64,000 nucleotides of DNA from the NCBI GenBank assembly GCA_003213135.1, contig QCNT01000004.1, positions 12,956 to 76,955 of the forward strand, given 5' to 3'. Numbering within the stretch: position 1 is the first letter of the stretch; each line of letters opens with the position of its first letter. Below the pieces are notes generated by a model, which saw nothing but the letters and a program-made list of their open reading frames with translations, was not told where the DNA came from and ran no database searches. Positions 1,666-38,663 of the stretch are shown piece by piece. The position numbers and the translations under genes are program-made. The DNA is from Pelagibacteraceae bacterium AG-426-I15 (GTDB taxonomy: Bacteria > Pseudomonadota > Alphaproteobacteria > Pelagibacterales > Pelagibacteraceae).

Positions 1666-1697
1666 TTGACATCCATGTAAAAAAACTTAAATATAAA
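1666..1697 (+). promoter_or_regulatory. Candidate sigma70-type promoter for the microprotein unit
   Basis: TTGACA at 1666-1671. A/T-rich -10 candidates (AAATAT/ATATAA/TATAAA) lie 17-20 nt downstream at 1689-1697. It sits inside an unusually long non-coding gap. Confidence 0.35.
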
Positions 1698-1746
1698 AAT
1701 ATCAAACGAATCACTTAGATTTGTTTTTAAAAAAAGGGAGATAAAG

Positions 1747-1818
1747 ATGGCTAAAAGACGTAAAAAGAAAAAAGGTAAGAAAAAGAAGGCTAAAAAAAGA
1801 AGAAGAAGAAGAAGATAA
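1747..1818 (+). CDS. 23-aa poly-Lys/Arg microprotein MAKRRKKKKGKKKKAKKRRRRRR (hypothetical; below ORF-track length cutoff)
   Basis: ATG at 1747 is preceded by GGGAG (1736-1740) at 6-nt spacing. Stop TAA is at 1816-1818. A GC-rich hairpin terminator follows 13 nt downstream. Confidence 0.5.
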   Translation: MAKRRKKKKGKKKKAKKRRRRRR

Positions 1819-1831
1819 ATAGTTTTCTTAA

Positions 1832-1868
1832 AACGCCCTTTCCAAATCTCACGGAAGGGGCGTTTTTT
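1832..1868. terminator. Bidirectional rho-independent terminator between the microprotein ORF and convergent carD
   Basis: Stem AACGCCCTTTCC / GGAAGGGGCGTT with one G-U pair and a 9-nt loop. T6 follows on the + strand and TTTT on the - strand. The carD stop codon lies at the hairpin edge. Confidence 0.75.
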
Positions 1869-2882: not shown

Positions 2883-3308
2883 ATTTTTTTTTCATTCAAA
2901 GCTTCTAGTTTTGCTTCACCAATTAATTTATCTTCCACATAAAGTAAACCTCCAATTCGTCTCATCAGCGTGCTTTCATACATATCAGATTTTCCATCTG
3001 ATAATATTATCTTCCACAAAATCTTTATTACTTCTTTCTTAAATTCTAAAGTATTTTTTTTTTATTTCTTGAGTAAATTTCAAAATCTGATTTGAATTCT
3101 GCTCTTCTAATTCTGCCTTGTTTACAATTTCTTCAATATTTTTTTTAACTCCAATAGATTTTAAAAAGTTAATTATAATCATTTTTTCGTTATCTGTATA
3201 ATTTTCATCTATTTTCGCAGCATGTATTAATAATGCAGTGATTTTAATAAAATCATTAACACTACTAGCGTTTTCTTTGTTTTCATTTTTATTAAATATA
3301 TCTAGCAT
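2879..3308 (-). pseudogene. TerB-family (tellurite-resistance TerB-like) protein, frame broken once in a coding-strand A10 run
   Basis: The N-half ORF 3039-3308 reads ALLIHAAKIDENYTDNEKMII. An unlisted C-half frame down to TGA 2881-2879 reads EVIKILWKIILSDGKSDMYESTLMRRIGGLLYVEDKLIGEAK. Together they give the two-repeat TerB layout of ~142 aa. The break is at T10 on the + strand, 3054-3063. Confidence 0.8.
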
Positions 3309-5779
3309 TATTTAAAACTTAACGACTCTAATTTTTTAAATGGATTATCATTTTTTTTAGCAAATTTTCTAAATTTTTTAATCTTTTTTTCACCTTTATA
3401 TACAAAAGTATTATCTTGATTCGCTCTATCTTTTTTATAATTCATATAGTCCATTAATTGAACAAAATTTTCTTTTTTACACCCCAAAAGGTTCATCATG
3501 CTGGAATCTATATCAAACTTTCCATTTTTGCTTTTTTCGATTATTTTTATGAAAAGTTTTTCAAGAATATCAACCCTTACATAAAAATTTTTAAATCTTT
3601 CAAAACCACAAAGTAACAAGAATTTTTCATTTAACTGTTTTTTTTGATCAACCACAAAATTCAACCCAGATTTAGGAATTTTATCTTTGAGTGTATTATT
3701 ACTAAAAAATTTCCATAGTAAAATTCTGAGACTTACTGCTTTAGGTTTTAGCATCTTCGGTAGGAAAACATGGTAACGGCCTAACTTTATACCTAGAGTT
3801 CTGAACTGTTTCCTTTCCTCTTTTGAAACTTTTTTTAAAATTTCTTCAACCCCTTTTCTTTTTAAAATTCCATTATTTTCATATAGTCTGAAAGCTGTTG
3901 CTCTTATATACTGATTATTATTTTTAAGTTTAATAAGATTTATTAAGTGTTCTAATTCTTCAGAAATATAAGCATTTAACCAGTTGCTTAAAAAAATAAA
4001 TAAGTTTTCCTGAGTTTTTTGATCAAGAGCATCATCTGCAATAATTTCTAAATCAGGAGCAAGATAATTTTTACCTTTACGAATTCTTGCAATCGGATTA
4101 TTTTTCCAATAAATTTTATAATCATCTCTTAAATCAACCTCCTTTTCATTAACAATATTATTTACTCTATTCTTTAGTTCTTCACTTATACCTTGCTTGG
4201 CAGCTTTTTTTAAAGATTTAATATCAGTATCCAAAGTTCCTTTTGTGAATTCCAAATTTAACTTTAAACCTTTTAGTTTTCCAACTAGTTGATTATCTAT
4301 AATAACTTCATTGTTTAAATTGATTTCTGTATTTAATTTTATATCTTGTTTGAGATTTCTGGATAAAACACTTATCCTCTTATCAATAAAACTTTTAGTA
4401 AGCTCATTATGTAATTTATCAGATAGATTATCTTCAATATTTTTACTTAATTGTATCCAATAATCTGCATTTTCTACCCAATTTTTTTTATTAGCTACAT
4501 AAGACCAAATTCTAACATTTGAAATTTTATTTGCTATCATATCAATATTTCCCTTATATTTTTCTAAACCCTTTAATTGTGCCTTCATGTAATCATTTGG
4601 AATTCTTTTTTTATTTGAACTTAAGAAATTAAAAACTTTAGAGACTACATCTATATGATTAAAAGATTTTTTTTGAAAATCAGGAATCTGGCAGCATTCC
4701 CATAATAATTTAAGGTTATTTTGTGACACTTTAAGTTTTTTATCCCGCAAAAGGTATTTCAAAACGTTTTCGTCAATTGAGTCTGAAATTTTAATAAAAT
4801 TTTTACTTTCCGACTTCTTTTCTAAAGATTTAATGAATTTTTCTGGACTACTAAAATCTAAATTTGAATTTCTCCAATAAAGAAATTTAATATCATCCAG
4901 TTTATGATTTTGAATTTTTTCAATCTCGTCAGGCTGCAAATTTTCACAATTACCTGTTACTCCGAAAGACCCGTCGACTTTATACCTGCCAGCTCTTCCA
5001 GCTATTTGTGAAATTTCAGTAGTTCTAAGTTTTCTTGTTTTTTTTCCGTCAAATTTTTTTAGGCTAGAAAAGCTTATTTGTTCAATATCCATATTAATTC
5101 CCATTCCTATTGCATCAGTTGCAACCAAATAATCAACATCACCAGATTGATATACTCCAACCTGAGAGTTTCTTGTTTTTGGACTCAAAGATCCCATAAC
5201 AACTGCCGCCCCTCCTTTTTGTCTCCTAACTAGTTCTGCAATTGCATAAACTTCCTCAATAGAAAAGGCAATCAAGGCGCTTTTTCTTTCCAACCTAGAA
5301 ATTTTTTTATGCCCATTATAAGAAAGTTTTGAGAAACGTTGTTGTTCAACAAATTTTGTTTCAGGTATTATTATTGAGATCATATCTTTCATAATTTGAG
5401 AACCAAGAAACATAGTTAATAATTCACCTCTTAAATTAAGCAATCTATCAGTAAAGATATGCCCTCTTTCTCGATCACCACACATTTGAATTTCATCAAC
5501 AGCAACAAAATCTACTAATTTATCTTTAGGCATTGCCTCAACTGTACAAATAAAATATTGAGCAGAGTTAGGAACAATTTTCTCTTCACCTGTTATTAGT
5601 GCAACTTTATTTTCTCCTACTTTACTAACGCACTTATCATAAACTTCTCTTGCCAATAATCTTAAAGGAAATCCAAAAATACCAGAATTAAATTCCAACA
5701 TTTTCTCAATGGCCATGAAGGTTTTACCGGTGTTTGTAGGCCCAAGAACTGCAATTATTTTACTTTGAGAGGTTTCCAT
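3308..5779 (-). CDS. ATP-dependent helicase, Suv3-like superfamily 2
   Basis: Walker A GPTNTGKT, DEIQ box, ATDAIGMGIN and QIAGRAGR motifs, followed by a long C-terminal extension. Its stop overlaps the TerB-like start (TAATG). Confidence 0.85.
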   Translation of the reverse strand: METSQSKIIAVLGPTNTGKTFMAIEKMLEFNSGIFGFPLRLLAREVYDKCVSKVGENKVALITGEEKIVPNSAQYFICTVEAMPKDKLVDFVAVDEIQMCGDRERGHIFTDRLLNLRGELLTMFLGSQIMKDMISIIIPETKFVEQQRFSKLSYNGHKKISRLERKSALIAFSIEEVYAIAELVRRQKGGAAVVMGSLSPKTRNSQVGVYQSGDVDYLVATDAIGMGINMDIEQISFSSLKKFDGKKTRKLRTTEISQIAGRAGRYKVDGSFGVTGNCENLQPDEIEKIQNHKLDDIKFLYWRNSNLDFSSPEKFIKSLEKKSESKNFIKISDSIDENVLKYLLRDKKLKVSQNNLKLLWECCQIPDFQKKSFNHIDVVSKVFNFLSSNKKRIPNDYMKAQLKGLEKYKGNIDMIANKISNVRIWSYVANKKNWVENADYWIQLSKNIEDNLSDKLHNELTKSFIDKRISVLSRNLKQDIKLNTEINLNNEVIIDNQLVGKLKGLKLNLEFTKGTLDTDIKSLKKAAKQGISEELKNRVNNIVNEKEVDLRDDYKIYWKNNPIARIRKGKNYLAPDLEIIADDALDQKTQENLFIFLSNWLNAYISEELEHLINLIKLKNNNQYIRATAFRLYENNGILKRKGVEEILKKVSKEERKQFRTLGIKLGRYHVFLPKMLKPKAVSLRILLWKFFSNNTLKDKIPKSGLNFVVDQKKQLNEKFLLLCGFERFKNFYVRVDILEKLFIKIIEKSKNGKFDIDSSMMNLLGCKKENFVQLMDYMNYKKDRANQDNTFVYKGEKKIKKFRKFAKKNDNPFKKLESLSFK

Positions 5780-5927
5780 TTATTTGTGCTATATTTTTTT
5801 TTAAATACTATATATAGATTGCCCGTGAGAACAAAAGAAGATTAAATCATGACCGAATCACTTTGTCAAACGTTCTATTTTTGCCATTTATCTTTAGTAA
5901 AATTTATTTTGTTTTAAGATCAAATAT

Positions 5928-7163
5928 ATGAAAGATTTTACAAAAAAAAATATTAAATCTTTAAAGCCTTCAGCAACTTTGGCAATAAATGAAAAATCAA
6001 AAGAACTAATTTCTAAAGGAAAAAAAGTTTATAAATTTGGTTTTGGCCAATCTCCCTTTCCAGTACCTAACTCAGTAATCTCAGCTTTAAAAAATAATGC
6101 TGATAAAAAAGATTATATGCCAATCCAGGGTTCATTATCGTTAAGACAATCTGTTGCAGAATATATAAACAAAAGAACATCGAATAATTTTAGTTCAGAA
6201 GATATTATTATCAGTCCTGGATCGAAGGAGTTAATGTTTTTATTGCACTTAGGTTTTGATGGCGAGATTTTATTACCCGCACCAAGTTGGGTATCATATG
6301 AACCTCACGCAATTATAGGGCAAAACAAATTTCACTGGATTGAAACTTCAGTAGAGAATAATTGGTTTCCTACATCTAATCAACTAGAACAAAAAGCCAA
6401 AGAATTAAAAAATAAAAATATAATTTTAATTCTTAATTCACCAAATAATCCGGCGGGATCAAGTTGTAAAAATTTTGAAGAAATTGCAAATATTGCAAAA
6501 AAAAATAATTTTATAATTTTATCAGACGAAATTTATACCGAACTTACTTTTAATCGAAAGTATAATTCTATTTCAAAATATTATCCTGAAGGCACCATAA
6601 TAAGTAGCGGTCTAAGTAAATGGTGTGGAGCAGGCGGTTGGAGGCTCGGGTTTTTTGCAGTACCAAAAAACTTAGGCCAAATACTTAAAATGTTAAAAAT
6701 ACTTGCAAGCGAGTCATTTACTGCAGTTAGCTCACCAATTCAGGCAGCAGCTATTGAAGCTTTCAAAGGCGATCATACAGAATATTTAAACAGTACAACT
6801 GGAATTTTAGATGCAGTAGGTAATTATGTTTACGAAAACTTAAAATCAAATAAAGTATTAATACAAAAGCCTGAGGGAGGTTTTTATTTGATGCCCGAAT
6901 TTTTAAATTCAAAGTTTAAAACATCCAAAGAAATGTGCGATAATATATTAGATAAATCTGGTGTCGCTTTATTACCCGGTTCAGATTTTGGTTTTAAACC
7001 TAATAAAATGTTAGCCAGGTTGAGTTATACAGACTTTGATGGAAAAACTTTTTTACAAAATATAGAAAGTGGTAAAAAACCAGATCATGAAAAGATTAAA
7101 AAGTTTGCACCAAATATTGTAGAGGGAACTAAAAGACTTATTGAATGGTCAAAAACTCTCTAA
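5928..7163 (+). CDS. Class I/II PLP-dependent aminotransferase (aspartate/aromatic aminotransferase-like)
   Basis: NSPNNPAGS, SDEIY and SGLSKW..GWRLGF (PLP-lysine region) motifs. Confidence 0.8.
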   Translation: MKDFTKKNIKSLKPSATLAINEKSKELISKGKKVYKFGFGQSPFPVPNSVISALKNNADKKDYMPIQGSLSLRQSVAEYINKRTSNNFSSEDIIISPGSKELMFLLHLGFDGEILLPAPSWVSYEPHAIIGQNKFHWIETSVENNWFPTSNQLEQKAKELKNKNIILILNSPNNPAGSSCKNFEEIANIAKKNNFIILSDEIYTELTFNRKYNSISKYYPEGTIISSGLSKWCGAGGWRLGFFAVPKNLGQILKMLKILASESFTAVSSPIQAAAIEAFKGDHTEYLNSTTGILDAVGNYVYENLKSNKVLIQKPEGGFYLMPEFLNSKFKTSKEMCDNILDKSGVALLPGSDFGFKPNKMLARLSYTDFDGKTFLQNIESGKKPDHEKIKKFAPNIVEGTKRLIEWSKTL

Positions 7164-34000: not shown

Positions 34001-34546
34001 GTGCAAAAACCTAAAATAAATTATTTCCGAAGAAAACCAAAGATTGATTTGCCAAGAACAAATCACAGAATCCGAAGCATTGATGTACAAGTTATAAATA
34101 GTGCTGGAGAAAACCTTGGTATACTTCCAATTAAAAAAGCTATTGAAATTGCAAAAAGCGAAGAACTAGATCTAATTGAAATCTCACCAAACGCTACACC
34201 TCCTGTTTGTAAAATTATGGACATGGGAAAATATAAATACGACATGCAAAAGAAGGCAAGTAAAGCAAAAAAAAATCAAAAAACTGCAGCATTGAAAGAA
34301 CTTAAATTGAGACCTGGAACAGAGATACATGATTATAATTTTAAAATTAAAAATGCAAAAAAATTTTTAACTAAAGGTGATAAAGTAAAATTTACAGTTA
34401 AATTTAAAGGAAGAGAAATGCAGTTTACCCAACAGGGAAGAGATTTAATGGACAGAATAATAGAGGACACAAAAGAACTAGGCAAAGTAGAGCTAAATCC
34501 AAAATTTGAGGGTAGACAGATGATTATGATCATTCAGCCTAATTAA
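34001..34546 (+). CDS. infC: Translation initiation factor IF-3 (non-AUG start)
   Basis: NHRIRSIDVQVINSAGENLGI, PPVCKIMD and KELKLRP motifs. There is no in-frame ATG upstream of the conserved core. Confidence 0.92.
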   Translation: MQKPKINYFRRKPKIDLPRTNHRIRSIDVQVINSAGENLGILPIKKAIEIAKSEELDLIEISPNATPPVCKIMDMGKYKYDMQKKASKAKKNQKTAALKELKLRPGTEIHDYNFKIKNAKKFLTKGDKVKFTVKFKGREMQFTQQGRDLMDRIIEDTKELGKVELNPKFEGRQMIMIIQPN

Positions 34547-34603
34547 ACTCACCTTTGTTTAAACTTGTAAACTAAATTTAAACTATATATAAATCCGATA
34601 CTT

Positions 34604-34810
34604 ATGCCAAAATTGAAAACAAAAAGCTCAGCAAAAAAAAGGTTTAAAATTACAAAATCCGGTAAGGTTAAAATGCCACAAGCAAATAAAAGACACGGGA
34701 TGATTAAAAGAACTAATTCACAAATAAGAAAACAAAGAGGCTCTACAATAATGTCTAAACAAGACTCTAAAATTGTAAAATCTTACATGCCTTATAGCTT
34801 GAGAGGATAA
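34604..34810 (+). CDS. rpmI: 50S ribosomal protein L35
   Basis: [15 protein letters not shown].. signature, positioned between infC and rplT. Confidence 0.93.
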
Positions 34811-34811
34811 A

Positions 34812-35168
34812 ATGGCCAGAACTAAAAGAGGAGTAATAAGTAGAGCAAGACACAAAAAAGTTTTGAAAGCTGTTAAGGGACAATTTGGCAGAAGAAAAAA
34901 TACAATCCGTATTGCTAGACAGGCCATGGAAAAAGCTCTTCAATATGCTTATAGAGATAGAAGAAATAAAAAAAGAGAATTTCGTTCTCTGTGGATTCAA
35001 AGAATAAATGCAGGAGTAAGATCTGAAGGTCTAACTTACTCTAAATTCATAAATGGTTTAAATAAGTCAAAAATTAAATTAGACAGAAAAGTTTTAGCTG
35101 ATTTAGCCTATAATAATCCAGAAGCCTTCAAGTCATTGGTTAAAAAAGTTCAGTTATCAATAAAATAA
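34812..35168 (+). CDS. rplT: 50S ribosomal protein L20
   Basis: [26 protein letters not shown] signature. Confidence 0.95.
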
Positions 35169-35208
35169 ACTTGTTTTTTCTTTCACAAAGTTAGAGTAAA
35201 AACTAACA

Positions 35209-36264
35209 ATGGTAGATTTACGAGAATTAATTCAAAAAGTATCACAGGCCAAAAGTAAGTTAGAGTTGCAAAACCTAAAAACTCAATTTTTGGGAAAAAA
35301 TAGTCAAATCAATCAAGAATTTAAAAAACTTGGATCTTTAAATGAAAATGACAGAAAAATCCTGGCAACTTCTCTTAACAATGAAAAGCAAAAAATTTTA
35401 GATGCTATAAATAATAAGTTTAAAGAATTAGAAAAAAATGAAATTAATCAGAAACTACAAAAAGATAAAGTCGATGTTACATTACCTGGTAGAGAAAGAC
35501 CAAATGGAAAAATACACCCTGTCTCACAGGTCATAGATGAAATTTCTTCAATATTTTCTGAAGTTGGCTTTTCTGTAGCCGAAGGCCCAGATGTAGAAAC
35601 TGAATATAATAATTTTACTGCATTAAATACTCCCGAAAACCATCCTGCCAGAGATATGCATGATACTTTTTATTTAGACGATAACAAAAAAATTTTACTA
35701 AGAACCCACACTTCCCCAGTTCAAATTAGAGCTATGTTAGCTGGAAAGGCTCCATTTAAAATTATTGTTCCTGGAAGGACTTACCGATGCGATAGTGACC
35801 AAACGCATGCGCCAATGTTTCATCAACTTGAAGGTTTACATATAGATAAAAATATAACTATGGGACATCTAAAAGGCTGCTTAGATTATTTTGTAAAGGA
35901 ATTTTTTGAAGTAAAAAATATTCGAATGAGATTTAGACCAAGCCATTTTCCTTTCACAGAACCTTCAGCAGAAGTTGATATTGGTTATAGATTAGAAAAT
36001 GGAAGAATTATTGTTGGTGAAGGAGATAAATGGCTCGAGATATTAGGTTGTGGGATGGTTCATCCAAATGTTTTAAAAAATGCAAAAGTTGATACAAAAA
36101 AATTTCAAGGTTTTGCATTTGGAATGGGAATAGATAGACTTGCGATGCTTAAATATGGAATAAATGATCTTAGATCTTTTTTTGAAGCTGATTATAGATG
36201 GTTAAATTATTTTGGATTTGATCCATTAGATGTTCCTACAAATTATAGAGGCCTAAGCAGATGA
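35209..36264 (+). CDS. pheS: Phenylalanine--tRNA ligase alpha subunit
   Basis: [27 protein letters not shown] and [14 protein letters not shown] motifs. Confidence 0.95.
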
Positions 36265-38663
36265 TACTAACTTTGTCATGGTTAAAAAACCATCTTACAA
36301 CTAACGCTAATTTGACAAAAATAATTGATAAACTTACATCCATTGGACTGGAAGTAGAGGGTATAAAAGAAACTAATAATAGTTTGTCAGATTTTAAAAT
36401 AGCAAAAGTTATAAAAGTGGATAAACATCCTAATGCAGACAAACTTAAGCTTTGCGATGTAAGCCTTGGAAAAGATAAGATAATAAAAGTTGTTTGTGGG
36501 GCTGCTAATGCAAGAAATGGACTTATTACAATATATGCTCCCCCAGGTTCAGTAATTCCAAAAACTAAAATGAAATTAAAAGTAGCAAAAATAAGAGGGG
36601 TAGAATCATATGGGATGCTTTGCTCTGAGAGTGAACTTAATATTTCAGAAAAAAGTGATGGAATAATCGAGTTAAAAAATACCGAGAAAGATATTGGAAA
36701 AAATTATTTTAAAAGCTCAGGAGAAAAATCTATTGATATATCAATAACCCCAAACAGGCCAGATTGTTTAGGTATCCGAGGTATTGCTAGAGACCTAGCA
36801 TCTTCTGGTTTAGGTAGGTTAAAAAAACAACCTTCAATAAAAATACTTCAAAAATTTAAAAGTCCAATCAAAGTTTCAATTAAAAAAGAAAAGCATCAAG
36901 GATGCGGTATTTTCGGAAGCGTATACATTAAAAATGTTAAAAATAAAGAAAGTCCTGACTGGTTAAAAAAAAGAATTATATCTTTAGGATTAAAACCTAT
37001 CTCAGCAATTGTAGATACAACTAATTATGTAATGTATGATTTGAATAGACCTTTGCATGCTTATGATGCAGATAAAATTGACAAAGAAATTATTGTTAGA
37101 AATTCAAATATAGGGGAAACTTTTGAAGCTTTAGACAATAAGAAATACAAACTTCAAAACAATATGTGTACTATTAGTGACAAATCAGGGGTACTCGGGT
37201 TGGGCGGAATAATTGGAGGAACTAGGTCAGGGACAGAGCTTTCTACTACAAATATTTTATTAGAGTCTGCTTATTTTTTTCCATCGTCAATTAGAAAAAC
37301 TTCTAAAAGTTTAAATATCGATACTGATGCAAAATATAGATTTGAAAGAGGTATAGACCCAGATTCTGTAAGATTAGGCTTAGAACTGTCAATGTGCATG
37401 ATTCTTGATATGTGTGGCGGTGAAGCCAGCAAGTTTTCAATTGCAGGAAAAATAAAAGACACAAGACGAACCATTGATTTAGAAATAGAAAAGTTTTTTA
37501 AAGTTATTGGATTTTCAATTACAATTTTAGAAATTAAAAAAATTTTAATTTCTCTTGGATGCTCATTAAAGATTAGCGGTAAAAAAATTAAGGTTTTACC
37601 ACCCAGCTGGAGACCTGATTTAAAAGAAGATGTTGACCTAATAGAAGAACTTATAAGAATAAAGGGGTTTGATAAAATTTCATTAATCCACCCTGAAAAG
37701 ATTAGATCAAAAGAAACACTTAATTTTAAACAAAAGTTATTTCATCTTTCCCAAAGAGCAGTTGCAAATAAAGGATATTTAGAGGCAATTACTTGGTCAT
37801 TTACCGATTCTAAAATTGACAAATACTTTTCAAATGGAAAAAAAGATATAGAAATAACTAATCCAATATCAAGTGACCTTAATGTTTTAAGACAATCGAT
37901 ATTTTCAAATTTGATTATTTATTTGAAAAAAAACCAAGACAGAGGATATCTGGATGTTTCTTTGTTTGAAATCGGCCCAACCTTTTCAGGTAATAAACCA
38001 GGTGATCAACAAACGGTAATTGGAGGTTTAAAATCCGGTGTCACAAACAGAAAAAGCTGGGATAGCAAAGCAAGAAACATAGATGTTTTTGATATAAAGG
38101 CAGATGTAACAAAAACTTTAACAGAACTTGGTATTAATGAAAATGATTTGTTTATTAGTGACAAAACTCCAAACTATTATAACCCAGTTAGATCTGGGTC
38201 TGTTAAATTAAAGTCAGAAAATGGGATACAGTTAGCTATATTTGGAGAAATCCATCCTGGTATAATTTCGAATCTAGATTTAAAAGAACAAAATATTTGT
38301 GGATTTGAAATTTTTTTAAAAAATATTCCTGAGCCAAAAAGAAAATACCGATTTGAAAAAAATAATTATACTGTTTCTGAGTTTCAAAAATCGGAGAGAG
38401 ATTTTGCTTTTGTAATTGACAAAGACTACAAAGCTGGTGAAATAGAAAAATTAATTAGAGGAGCCGATAAAGATTTAATCAAAAATGTTTTAATATTTGA
38501 TGTTTTTGAGGGTGGTAATATGCCTGAGGGAAAAAAATCTATTGCAGTTAGTATAACTATTCAATCTATGGAAAAAACACTTTCAGAAAAAGATATTAAC
38601 GAAGTAAGTCAAAAAATTATTAATATTGTCAAAACCAGGACTGGTGGAACAATAAGATCATAA
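36261..38663 (+). CDS. pheT: Phenylalanine--tRNA ligase beta subunit
   Basis: 800 aa with tRNA-binding, B3/4, B5 and FDX-ACB domain order. ATGA overlap with pheS. Confidence 0.93.

Follow-up and report, generated by a model that had tools for sequence, protein, structure and literature searches.

A probable lysine- and arginine-rich micro-protein gene convergent to carD in SAR11 bacteria

Introduction

Can a run of 23 codons, most of which specify lysine or arginine, be a genuine gene, and what could the product of such a gene do? The question is raised by the spacer between a gene for a FadD-type acyl-CoA ligase and carD in Pelagibacteraceae bacterium AG-426-I15, a member of SAR11, which is the most abundant bacterial lineage of the ocean and a model of genome streamlining, with a genome of 1.3 Mb. 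The DNA analysed here, referred to as the window, is a 64-kb stretch of contig QCNT01000004.1. An initial annotation, made from the letters alone, had placed in this spacer a complete expression unit for a microprotein that standard gene callers would overlook, and had compared the product with tiny basic proteins of the ribosome. The comparative analysis described below makes it very probable that the micro-open reading frame (micro-ORF) is a real coding gene, and likely that its product is a nucleic-acid-binding polycation of some kind.

The micro-ORF, MAKRRKKKKGKKKKAKKRRRRRR, occupies positions 1747–1818 of the plus strand and consists of 23 codons followed by TAA (1816–1818). Lysine and arginine account for 19 of its 23 residues (83%), and it is the sole small ORF of at least 12 amino acids with a combined Lys and Arg content of at least 60% in the window. 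On its 3' side lies carD (Pfam domains CarD_C and CarD_TRCF_RID), followed by the ferredoxin gene fdxA; carD is convergent to the micro-ORF, and its stop codon is located at 1867–1869 on the minus strand.

Conservation and frame of the micro-ORF

The carD loci used for comparison were taken from GTDB genomes, one genome per species, and the 27 best loci all belong to the Pelagibacterales, the best carD matches being SAR11 genomes with 59–84% amino-acid identity. The synteny comparison of the fadD–carD spacer proposed in the initial annotation found the micro-ORF unit in the same convergent position 3' of carD in 27 of the 27 SAR11 species (23 units by an initial scan and four more by direct reading of the loci). 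Frame-breaking indels, which would have spoken against a gene, were sought among these relatives and none was found; every indel is in frame. The start codon ATG and an in-frame stop are kept in all 28 orthologous units, and the micro-ORF is intact in each of them. The peptides, of 21, 22, 23, 24, 27 or 38 amino acids, differ in length by the in-frame gain or loss of Lys/Ala repeats. All 28 begin with MAKR or MAKK, and their C-termini are rich in Arg or Lys right up to the stop codon.

A polypurine tract composed only of A and G is free of stop codons in every forward frame, so the openness of the reading frame proves little and frame-specific evidence was required. Across the 24 distinct coding sequences (560 codons), frame 0 encodes 305 Lys, 149 Arg, 84 Ala, 17 Thr and 5 Gly, without any acidic or hydrophobic residue and without a stop. 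Out of frame, by contrast, the same sequences are rich in Glu, with 115 in frame +1 and 73 in frame +2, and frame +2 is broken by 99 stops. Synonymous variation is found at like positions for Arg (AGA/CGT/CGA), Lys (AAA/AAG), Ala (GCT/GCA/GCC) and Gly (GGT/GGA), and substitutions between Lys and Arg are frequent among the orthologues. These patterns point to selection on the charge of the peptide.

Selection is also apparent in the choice of codons. AAG makes up 26% of the Lys codons in the micro-ORFs versus 15% in the long ORFs of the window, and the ratio of GCT to GCA among the Ala codons is 79:4, versus 319:393 genome-wide. As a result of this AAG and GCT preference, no A-run exceeds 8 nucleotides (nt) in any of the micro-ORF coding sequences, whereas codons drawn at genomic frequencies give mean maximal A-runs of 10–14.6 nt for 23 of the 24. 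Codon use of this type would be expected if slippage on poly(A), during transcription or translation, were selected against, and slippage is of consequence only for a message that has to be read accurately.

The proposal of a real micro-protein gene overlooked by gene callers is thus borne out by synteny, frame composition, in-frame indels and synonymous changes, with further support from the avoidance of A-runs, from the conserved expression signals described below and from the absence of the peptide from protein databases.

Searches against known families

A search of Pfam with four peptide variants returned no family at E ≤ 10, PF08213 (the bS22/mS38 domain) included, and a search of NCBIfam with the window peptide returned none at E ≤ 1. 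Likewise, the PDB chains, which include bL37, Thx and other ribosomal chains, gave no match at E ≤ 10 with either phmmer or a 17-sequence profile. Short low-complexity queries carry little statistical power, so these null results weaken homology to bS22, eL41 and mS38 without excluding it. An exact look-up of 16 versions of the peptide (10 from SAR11; extended and gene-call forms included) found none of them in a collection of 15 billion proteins. At the RNA level, Rfam 15 gave nothing at the gathering score for the SAR11 unit, the best match being atoC with 28.4 bits (gathering score 50), which looks terminator-like, and a gathering-threshold search of the whole window gave two tRNAs only. 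No prior description of the sequence, of SAR11 small proteins of this kind or of an alphaproteobacterial bS22 was found in the literature, and the gene family appears to be undescribed so far.

Similar micro-ORFs outside SAR11

A metagenome scan for the pattern MAKRRKKxKK, restricted to CGN arginine codons so as to leave out SAR11, gave seven matches, two of which are complete micro-ORFs. One of these lies on a 44-kb contig of 60% GC (L087), where the micro-ORF MAKRRKKAKKAKKAKKTKKRRKKKKAM is accompanied by an AAGAGG Shine–Dalgarno (SD) sequence and a terminator hairpin. Three more contigs were reached through the neighbouring gene of the VOC family and have the order sdhA-sdhB-VOC-micro-ORF-acetyltransferase-AFG1. 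In this 60%-GC lineage the micro-ORF is kept in four contigs, with peptides of 26, 27 and 29 amino acids and in-frame indels. The gene neighbourhood differs from that of SAR11, with no carD nearby, and the codons are GC-rich (CGT, CGC, AAG, GCG and ACC). Since the coding DNA of this lineage is not polypurine, it is the peptide, and not a polypurine DNA, that is conserved. From the context of sdhAB and AFG1/ZapE and the GANTC signal described below, the lineage of L087, L094 and L095 is taken to be an alphaproteobacterium, and the gene family probably extends beyond SAR11.

The second complete match (L092, 49% GC) contains the micro-ORF MAKRRKKAKKVKKVKKVKKVKRAKKARRRR, a 30-residue Lys/Val/Arg peptide, with the SD sequence GGGAGGAGG, a downstream hairpin and a promoter-like TTGCTT-N17-TATACT. 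This micro-ORF adjoins two tRNA-Ala genes. A separate observation at L092:1–1103 is the presence of tRNA-like 3' ends between and after the tRNA-Ala genes (for example GGTTCGAGTCCCCTCATCTCCACCA near 405–433) that were not called by ARAGORN.

Other searches were negative. The 53 non-SAR11 alphaproteobacterial carD loci contain no syntenic basic micro-ORF, just spurious Arg-rich off-frame ORFs. The pattern scan of viral contigs gave no micro-ORF, its matches being the N-termini of long phage proteins, and three homologues of the VOC protein with 73–74% identity (L097–L099) lie in another gene context without a micro-ORF. Gene calls of 67–70 amino acids (MMGIFGIEPK...) at L094:2990–3193 and L095:2970–3182, minus strand, are probably over-extensions. 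Their added part has no SD sequence and runs across predicted leader hairpins, and an SD sequence precedes the internal MAKR start.

In addition, the 60%-GC lineage has a highly conserved non-coding region of 500–600 nt 5' of its micro-ORF (L087:10429–10934, L094:3071–3700 and L095:3060–3690, minus strand). Within this region lie several hairpins, 8–14 GANTC sites and TTGGCA-N17-CGATAT, a candidate promoter, and no Rfam match was found for this leader and upstream region.

Expression signals of the SAR11 unit

The signals listed in the initial annotation, namely TTGACA at 1666–1671, GGGAG at 1736–1740, ATG at 1747 and the ORF at 1747–1818, were each re-found at the same positions. The −35 box TTGACA lies on the plus strand, and its first five letters, TTGAC, are identical in 28 of the 28 units. 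In 26 units TTGAC lies 77–81 nt from the ATG; the two exceptions have distances of 89 and 94 nt. Between species, mean identity is 68–70% over the leader and ORF versus only 50% in the spacer just 5' of the −35 box. At the 17-nt spacing, the best −10 candidate is AAATAT (1689–1694, plus strand), which agrees with the consensus at three of six positions; AAWGWT-like hexamers with A2 and T6 occur at this conserved position in the orthologues, and a TATAAA sits at a spacing of 20 nt.

The 5' leader is predicted to form a hairpin at 1704–1726 (plus strand) with the arms AAACGAAUC and GAUUUGUUU and the loop ACUUA. This hairpin is predicted in all 24 distinct leaders, and in L016, L017, L025 and L026 the arms have changed and yet still pair. 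No pairing is predicted for the A-rich region around the SD sequence and AUG, with the exception of L025, in which the SD region is partly paired. The SD sequence itself, GGGAG (1736–1740, plus strand), lies 6 nt 5' of the ATG and is found in 27 of the 28 orthologues. Among the 48 long ORFs of the window, a 4-mer SD core is present within 18 nt of the start in four and a 5-mer core in none, so the micro-ORF has a stronger SD sequence than any of them.

The 3' end of the unit is formed by a predicted intrinsic terminator at 1830–1868, with a hairpin at 1830–1866 and a T-run reaching 1868. With a folding energy of −21.7 kcal/mol (z = −5.9), the 14-bp hairpin is more stable than all 200 shuffled sequences. 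It is bordered by AAAA and TTTTTT, and the T-run overlaps the carD stop codon; from these borders and this overlap, the terminator would be bidirectional, acting on both strands and shared by the two convergent genes. In 28 of the 28 units a T-run follows a G+C hairpin, with at least four distinct stem sequences and the pairing kept in each; on these alignments the terminator covaries among the SAR11 units. The unit had been proposed as a stand-alone assembly of promoter, SD sequence and terminator. The conservation of the −35 box, SD sequence and terminator upholds that description, and it has to be amended in two respects: the terminator is shared with carD, and a consensus promoter scan did not call the promoter at 1666, because the hexamer at the 17-nt spacing is merely AAATAT.

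A leader peptide or attenuator was considered for this arrangement and rejected: the next gene, carD, is convergent, there is no co-directional gene, and a single terminator is present without alternative pairing, the leader itself forming just one small 5' hairpin.

A GcrA/CcrM-type motif at the promoter

An unexpected feature of the micro-gene is its link with a motif of the GcrA/CcrM system. The sequence CGAATCA at 1707–1713 reads TGATTCG on the minus strand and contains a GANTC site (1708–1712), as recognised by CcrM, in the top GcrA-binding context; C-AATCA is invariant in the alignment. TGATTCG (YGAKTCK) is the consensus of the GcrA-binding, CcrM-methylated site of Caulobacter (PMC4647560). 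The motif is present in 27 of the 28 SAR11 leaders, and only 30 copies exist in 166 kb of SAR11 loci, so that nearly all of them are the leader copies. The same association is seen in the 60%-GC lineage. All four TGATTCG copies in each 5.4-kb locus of L094 and L095 lie within 630 nt 5' of the micro-ORF, and the single copy in 10.9 kb of L087 is located in the micro-ORF leader. GANTC is enriched 3–4.5-fold (P ≤ 0.01) in the region upstream of the micro-ORF in this lineage. Both lineages share the order of a −35 box, a 17-nt spacer, a weak −10 and, 12–17 nt further on, an imperfect GANTC palindrome.

A promoter-proximal GANTC in the YGAKTCK context, in its best form TGATTCG, is what a GcrA/CcrM-controlled promoter should carry, and from it we infer GcrA/CcrM control and methylation of the micro-gene promoter. 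The arrangement resembles GcrA/CcrM-activated sigma-70 promoters in that TGATTCG stands beside a sigma-70-type promoter with a weak −10, and GcrA stimulates open-complex formation at weak −10 sigma-70 promoters with such sites (PMC4647560). It differs from them in that the site lies just 3' of the predicted start and overlaps the arm of an RNA hairpin, and GcrA binding is a prediction. SAR11 has a CcrM homologue (PMC3973325) and has been analysed among the GcrA-bearing orders (PMC7987155). A scan of 20 window ORFs for gcrA and ccrM found neither gene.

Two observations concern these sites in the window as a whole. GANTC is depleted, with 121 copies observed versus 164 expected, as is YGAKTCK (27 versus 43), and the depletion of both is consistent with an active CcrM-type methylation system. 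A second TGATTCG lies at 5854–5860, in the 148-nt divergent intergenic region between a Suv3-like helicase gene (3308–5779, minus strand) and an aminotransferase gene (5928–7163, plus strand), and may mark another candidate GcrA-type promoter.

Proposed function and rival explanations

The best reading of the product, held tentatively and slightly favoured over a fixed ribosomal site, is a nonspecific, nucleoid-type polycation that acts by charge only. It is favoured because the peptide is of low complexity, varies from 21 to 38 amino acids and is linked to a promoter motif of the replication-associated kind. A nucleic-acid-condensing peptide, which the initial annotation listed behind its ribosomal analogy, is on this evidence at least as likely as that analogy. 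The putative sequence of events would begin at a sigma-70-type promoter with the invariant TTGACA and a weak −10, and with the TGATTCG site about 12 nt further 3'. The transcript, of about 165 nt, would carry a small 5' hairpin and an unpaired A-rich stretch with the strong SD sequence, and would end at the terminator shared with carD. After the probable removal of Met1, the product would have 20–37 residues and a net charge of about +19, with Lys and Arg interrupted by Ala, Thr or Gly at every third to fifth residue. Such a peptide could neutralise the phosphates of nucleic acids, compacting the nucleoid and binding RNA opportunistically in the fashion of protamines or H1 tails, and its synthesis might be coupled to replication and growth via a methylation-sensitive promoter. 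The transcription start, translation, abundance of the product, control by GcrA and CcrM, and molecular target are all predictions of this scheme. The broadest form of the idea, in which the peptide founds a widespread alphaproteobacterial family of CcrM/GcrA-timed, protamine-like micro-proteins that are made with DNA replication and are the smallest cellular nucleoid compactors, is unlikely on present evidence.

A number of points weigh against the nucleoid-type reading and its proposed control. Few convincing GcrA targets were found in Pelagibacter (PMC7987155), and L092 has no TGATTCG. In SAR11 the TGATTCG site coincides in part with the 5' arm of the leader hairpin, so it may be conserved as part of an RNA element and not as a DNA site. 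The promoter has a weak −10 and, as noted above, escapes a consensus scan. Outside SAR11, the search pattern itself dictated the first 10 codons of the micro-ORFs at 60% GC, so that their homology with the SAR11 gene is no more than plausible. Published proteomes are uninformative, because trypsin-based proteomics is blind to such a peptide. Furthermore, we know of no bacterial nucleoid protein so small, and, to our knowledge, the characterised free-standing conserved cellular polybasic proteins below about 35 amino acids (eL41, bS22, Thx and bL37) are ribosomal.

The last point is the strongest precedent for a dedicated ribosomal micro-protein, a rather doubtful but real possibility. The peptide would then be a stoichiometric component, forming a single helix in an rRNA pocket and stabilising the rRNA instead of Mg2+ or polyamines, and one candidate pocket would be the h44/h45/h27–H68 interface, which is occupied elsewhere by bS22, eL41 and mS38. 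The strong SD sequence, the MAK start and a stand-alone layout of the highly expressed type agree with this explanation, and a helix with one flat face could accommodate the small residues at i+3 to i+5. CarD is a factor of rRNA promoters, and its gene as the neighbour is a weak pointer in the same direction. Borrelia bS22 is a direct precedent, being a formerly unannotated protein with 61% Lys/Arg, whose pocket is structurally conserved across bacteria (PMC10618245). However, neither PF08213 nor any ribosomal chain in the PDB matches the SAR11 peptide, which is also without the conserved Trp, His, Met or Leu of eL41, bS22, Thx and bL37. A spread of 21–38 amino acids within one order fits a fixed rRNA pocket poorly and contrasts with Borrelia bS22, in which one substitution is seen across the genus, and a GcrA-type motif is unexpected for ribosomal protein genes.

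Two further explanations dispense with the released peptide. Translation itself might be the functional event, with the micro-ORF acting as a decoy or as a sensor of the supply of Lys- and Arg-tRNA, or with a polybasic nascent chain modulating ribosomes from within the exit tunnel; another possible task would be the control of read-through that runs antisense to carD. In favour of this explanation, the exit tunnel is longer than the complete peptide, the residues come in runs of two amino acids, and the unit shares its terminator with the convergent carD. Such a role is nevertheless improbable, as the terminator follows directly 3' with neither a co-directional downstream gene nor antiterminator pairing. 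Moreover, Lys and Arg interchange freely and codon identity is unconserved, the codons avoid slippery A-runs rather than build a stall site, and the peptide persists at 60% GC in another gene neighbourhood that lacks carD. Still less probable is a non-coding element, in which a polypurine (ARN)n tract serves as a small RNA, an Hfq-type binding site or a DNA structure and the ORF is incidental. The repeats of AGA and AAG match the ARN pattern, and a transcript with a 5' hairpin and a terminator resembles a small RNA. Against it stand the strict dependence on frame (no Glu in frame 0 versus the 115 and 73 in the others), the conserved ATG, SD sequence and in-frame stop, the lack of any Rfam family at or near the gathering score, and the 60%-GC lineage, where the polypurine character is lost and the peptide is kept. 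The structured or antisense-acting small RNA named as an alternative in the initial annotation is therefore disfavoured, the peptide being kept with wholly different codons at 60% GC. What probability remains falls to something else.

Implications

The gene is present in every SAR11 species examined despite genome streamlining and is presumably important. Lysine and arginine are rich in nitrogen, and their cost is borne here by a nitrogen-economising organism, which still retains the gene with the best translation signals of the region. Its absence from the protein collections checked, together with its invisibility to standard proteomics, exemplifies a systematic blind spot for ORFs of fewer than 30 codons. 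If the product is ribosomal, it would be a new lineage-specific component of the ribosome in the bacterial class ancestral to mitochondria. A nucleoid polycation controlled by CcrM/GcrA would instead represent a new type of bacterial chromatin component, and its gene would join the small number of clear GcrA targets known from SAR11.

Other features of the window

Downstream of fdxA and carD, an 89-residue TerB-domain ORF (3039–3308) overlaps the 823-residue Suv3-like DEXQ helicase gene (3308–5779) by one base on the minus strand, which is an unusual pairing. Farther along, positions 34001–38663 contain the canonical infC-rpmI-rplT-pheS-pheT cluster, in which infC is read with a GTG start and rpmI, the bL35 gene (34604–34810), has no SD sequence. 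The gathering-threshold scan of the window gave no Rfam match for an L20-leader.

Comparison with known polybasic proteins

The free-standing forms of bS22, eL41 and mS38 are 25–33 amino acids long with 60–70% Lys/Arg, are encoded by stand-alone and often unannotated genes, and bind rRNA through charge as a single helix (PMC10618245; bioRxiv 10.1101/2023.03.31.535098). The SAR11 peptide resembles these members of PF08213 in its tiny size, its strongly Lys/Arg-rich composition and its stand-alone gene. The PF08213 family is marked by a near-fixed length and conserved non-basic residues. Unlike its members, the SAR11 peptide reaches 83% Lys/Arg, is polymorphic in length and of low complexity, has no profile match, and contains only Ala, Thr and Gly besides Lys and Arg, with no His, Trp, Met or Leu positions.

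Similar size and charge are also found in the actinobacterial bL37 and in Thx of Thermus and Bacteroidota, and bL37 starts with MAKRGRKK. However, the likeness of the SAR11 peptide to them is confined to four to five N-terminal residues, and specific Gly, Pro, His or aromatic residues set both bL37 and Thx apart from it.

A third group comprises protamines, the C-terminal tails of histone H1, the bacterial H1-like proteins Hc1 of Chlamydia and AlgP of Pseudomonas, and the adenovirus Mu peptide, which are low-complexity sequences of Lys, Arg and Ala (and Thr) whose function derives from charge density, not from a fold. Compared with Hc1 and AlgP, the SAR11 peptide is far smaller than any bacterial example and is free-standing rather than the tail of a folded domain, and its DNA binding is proposed by analogy. 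With the whole group it shares a low-complexity composition of Lys, Arg and Ala (and Thr), the lack of acidic residues that typifies protamines and H1 tails, and a length that evolves by the gain and loss of repeats.

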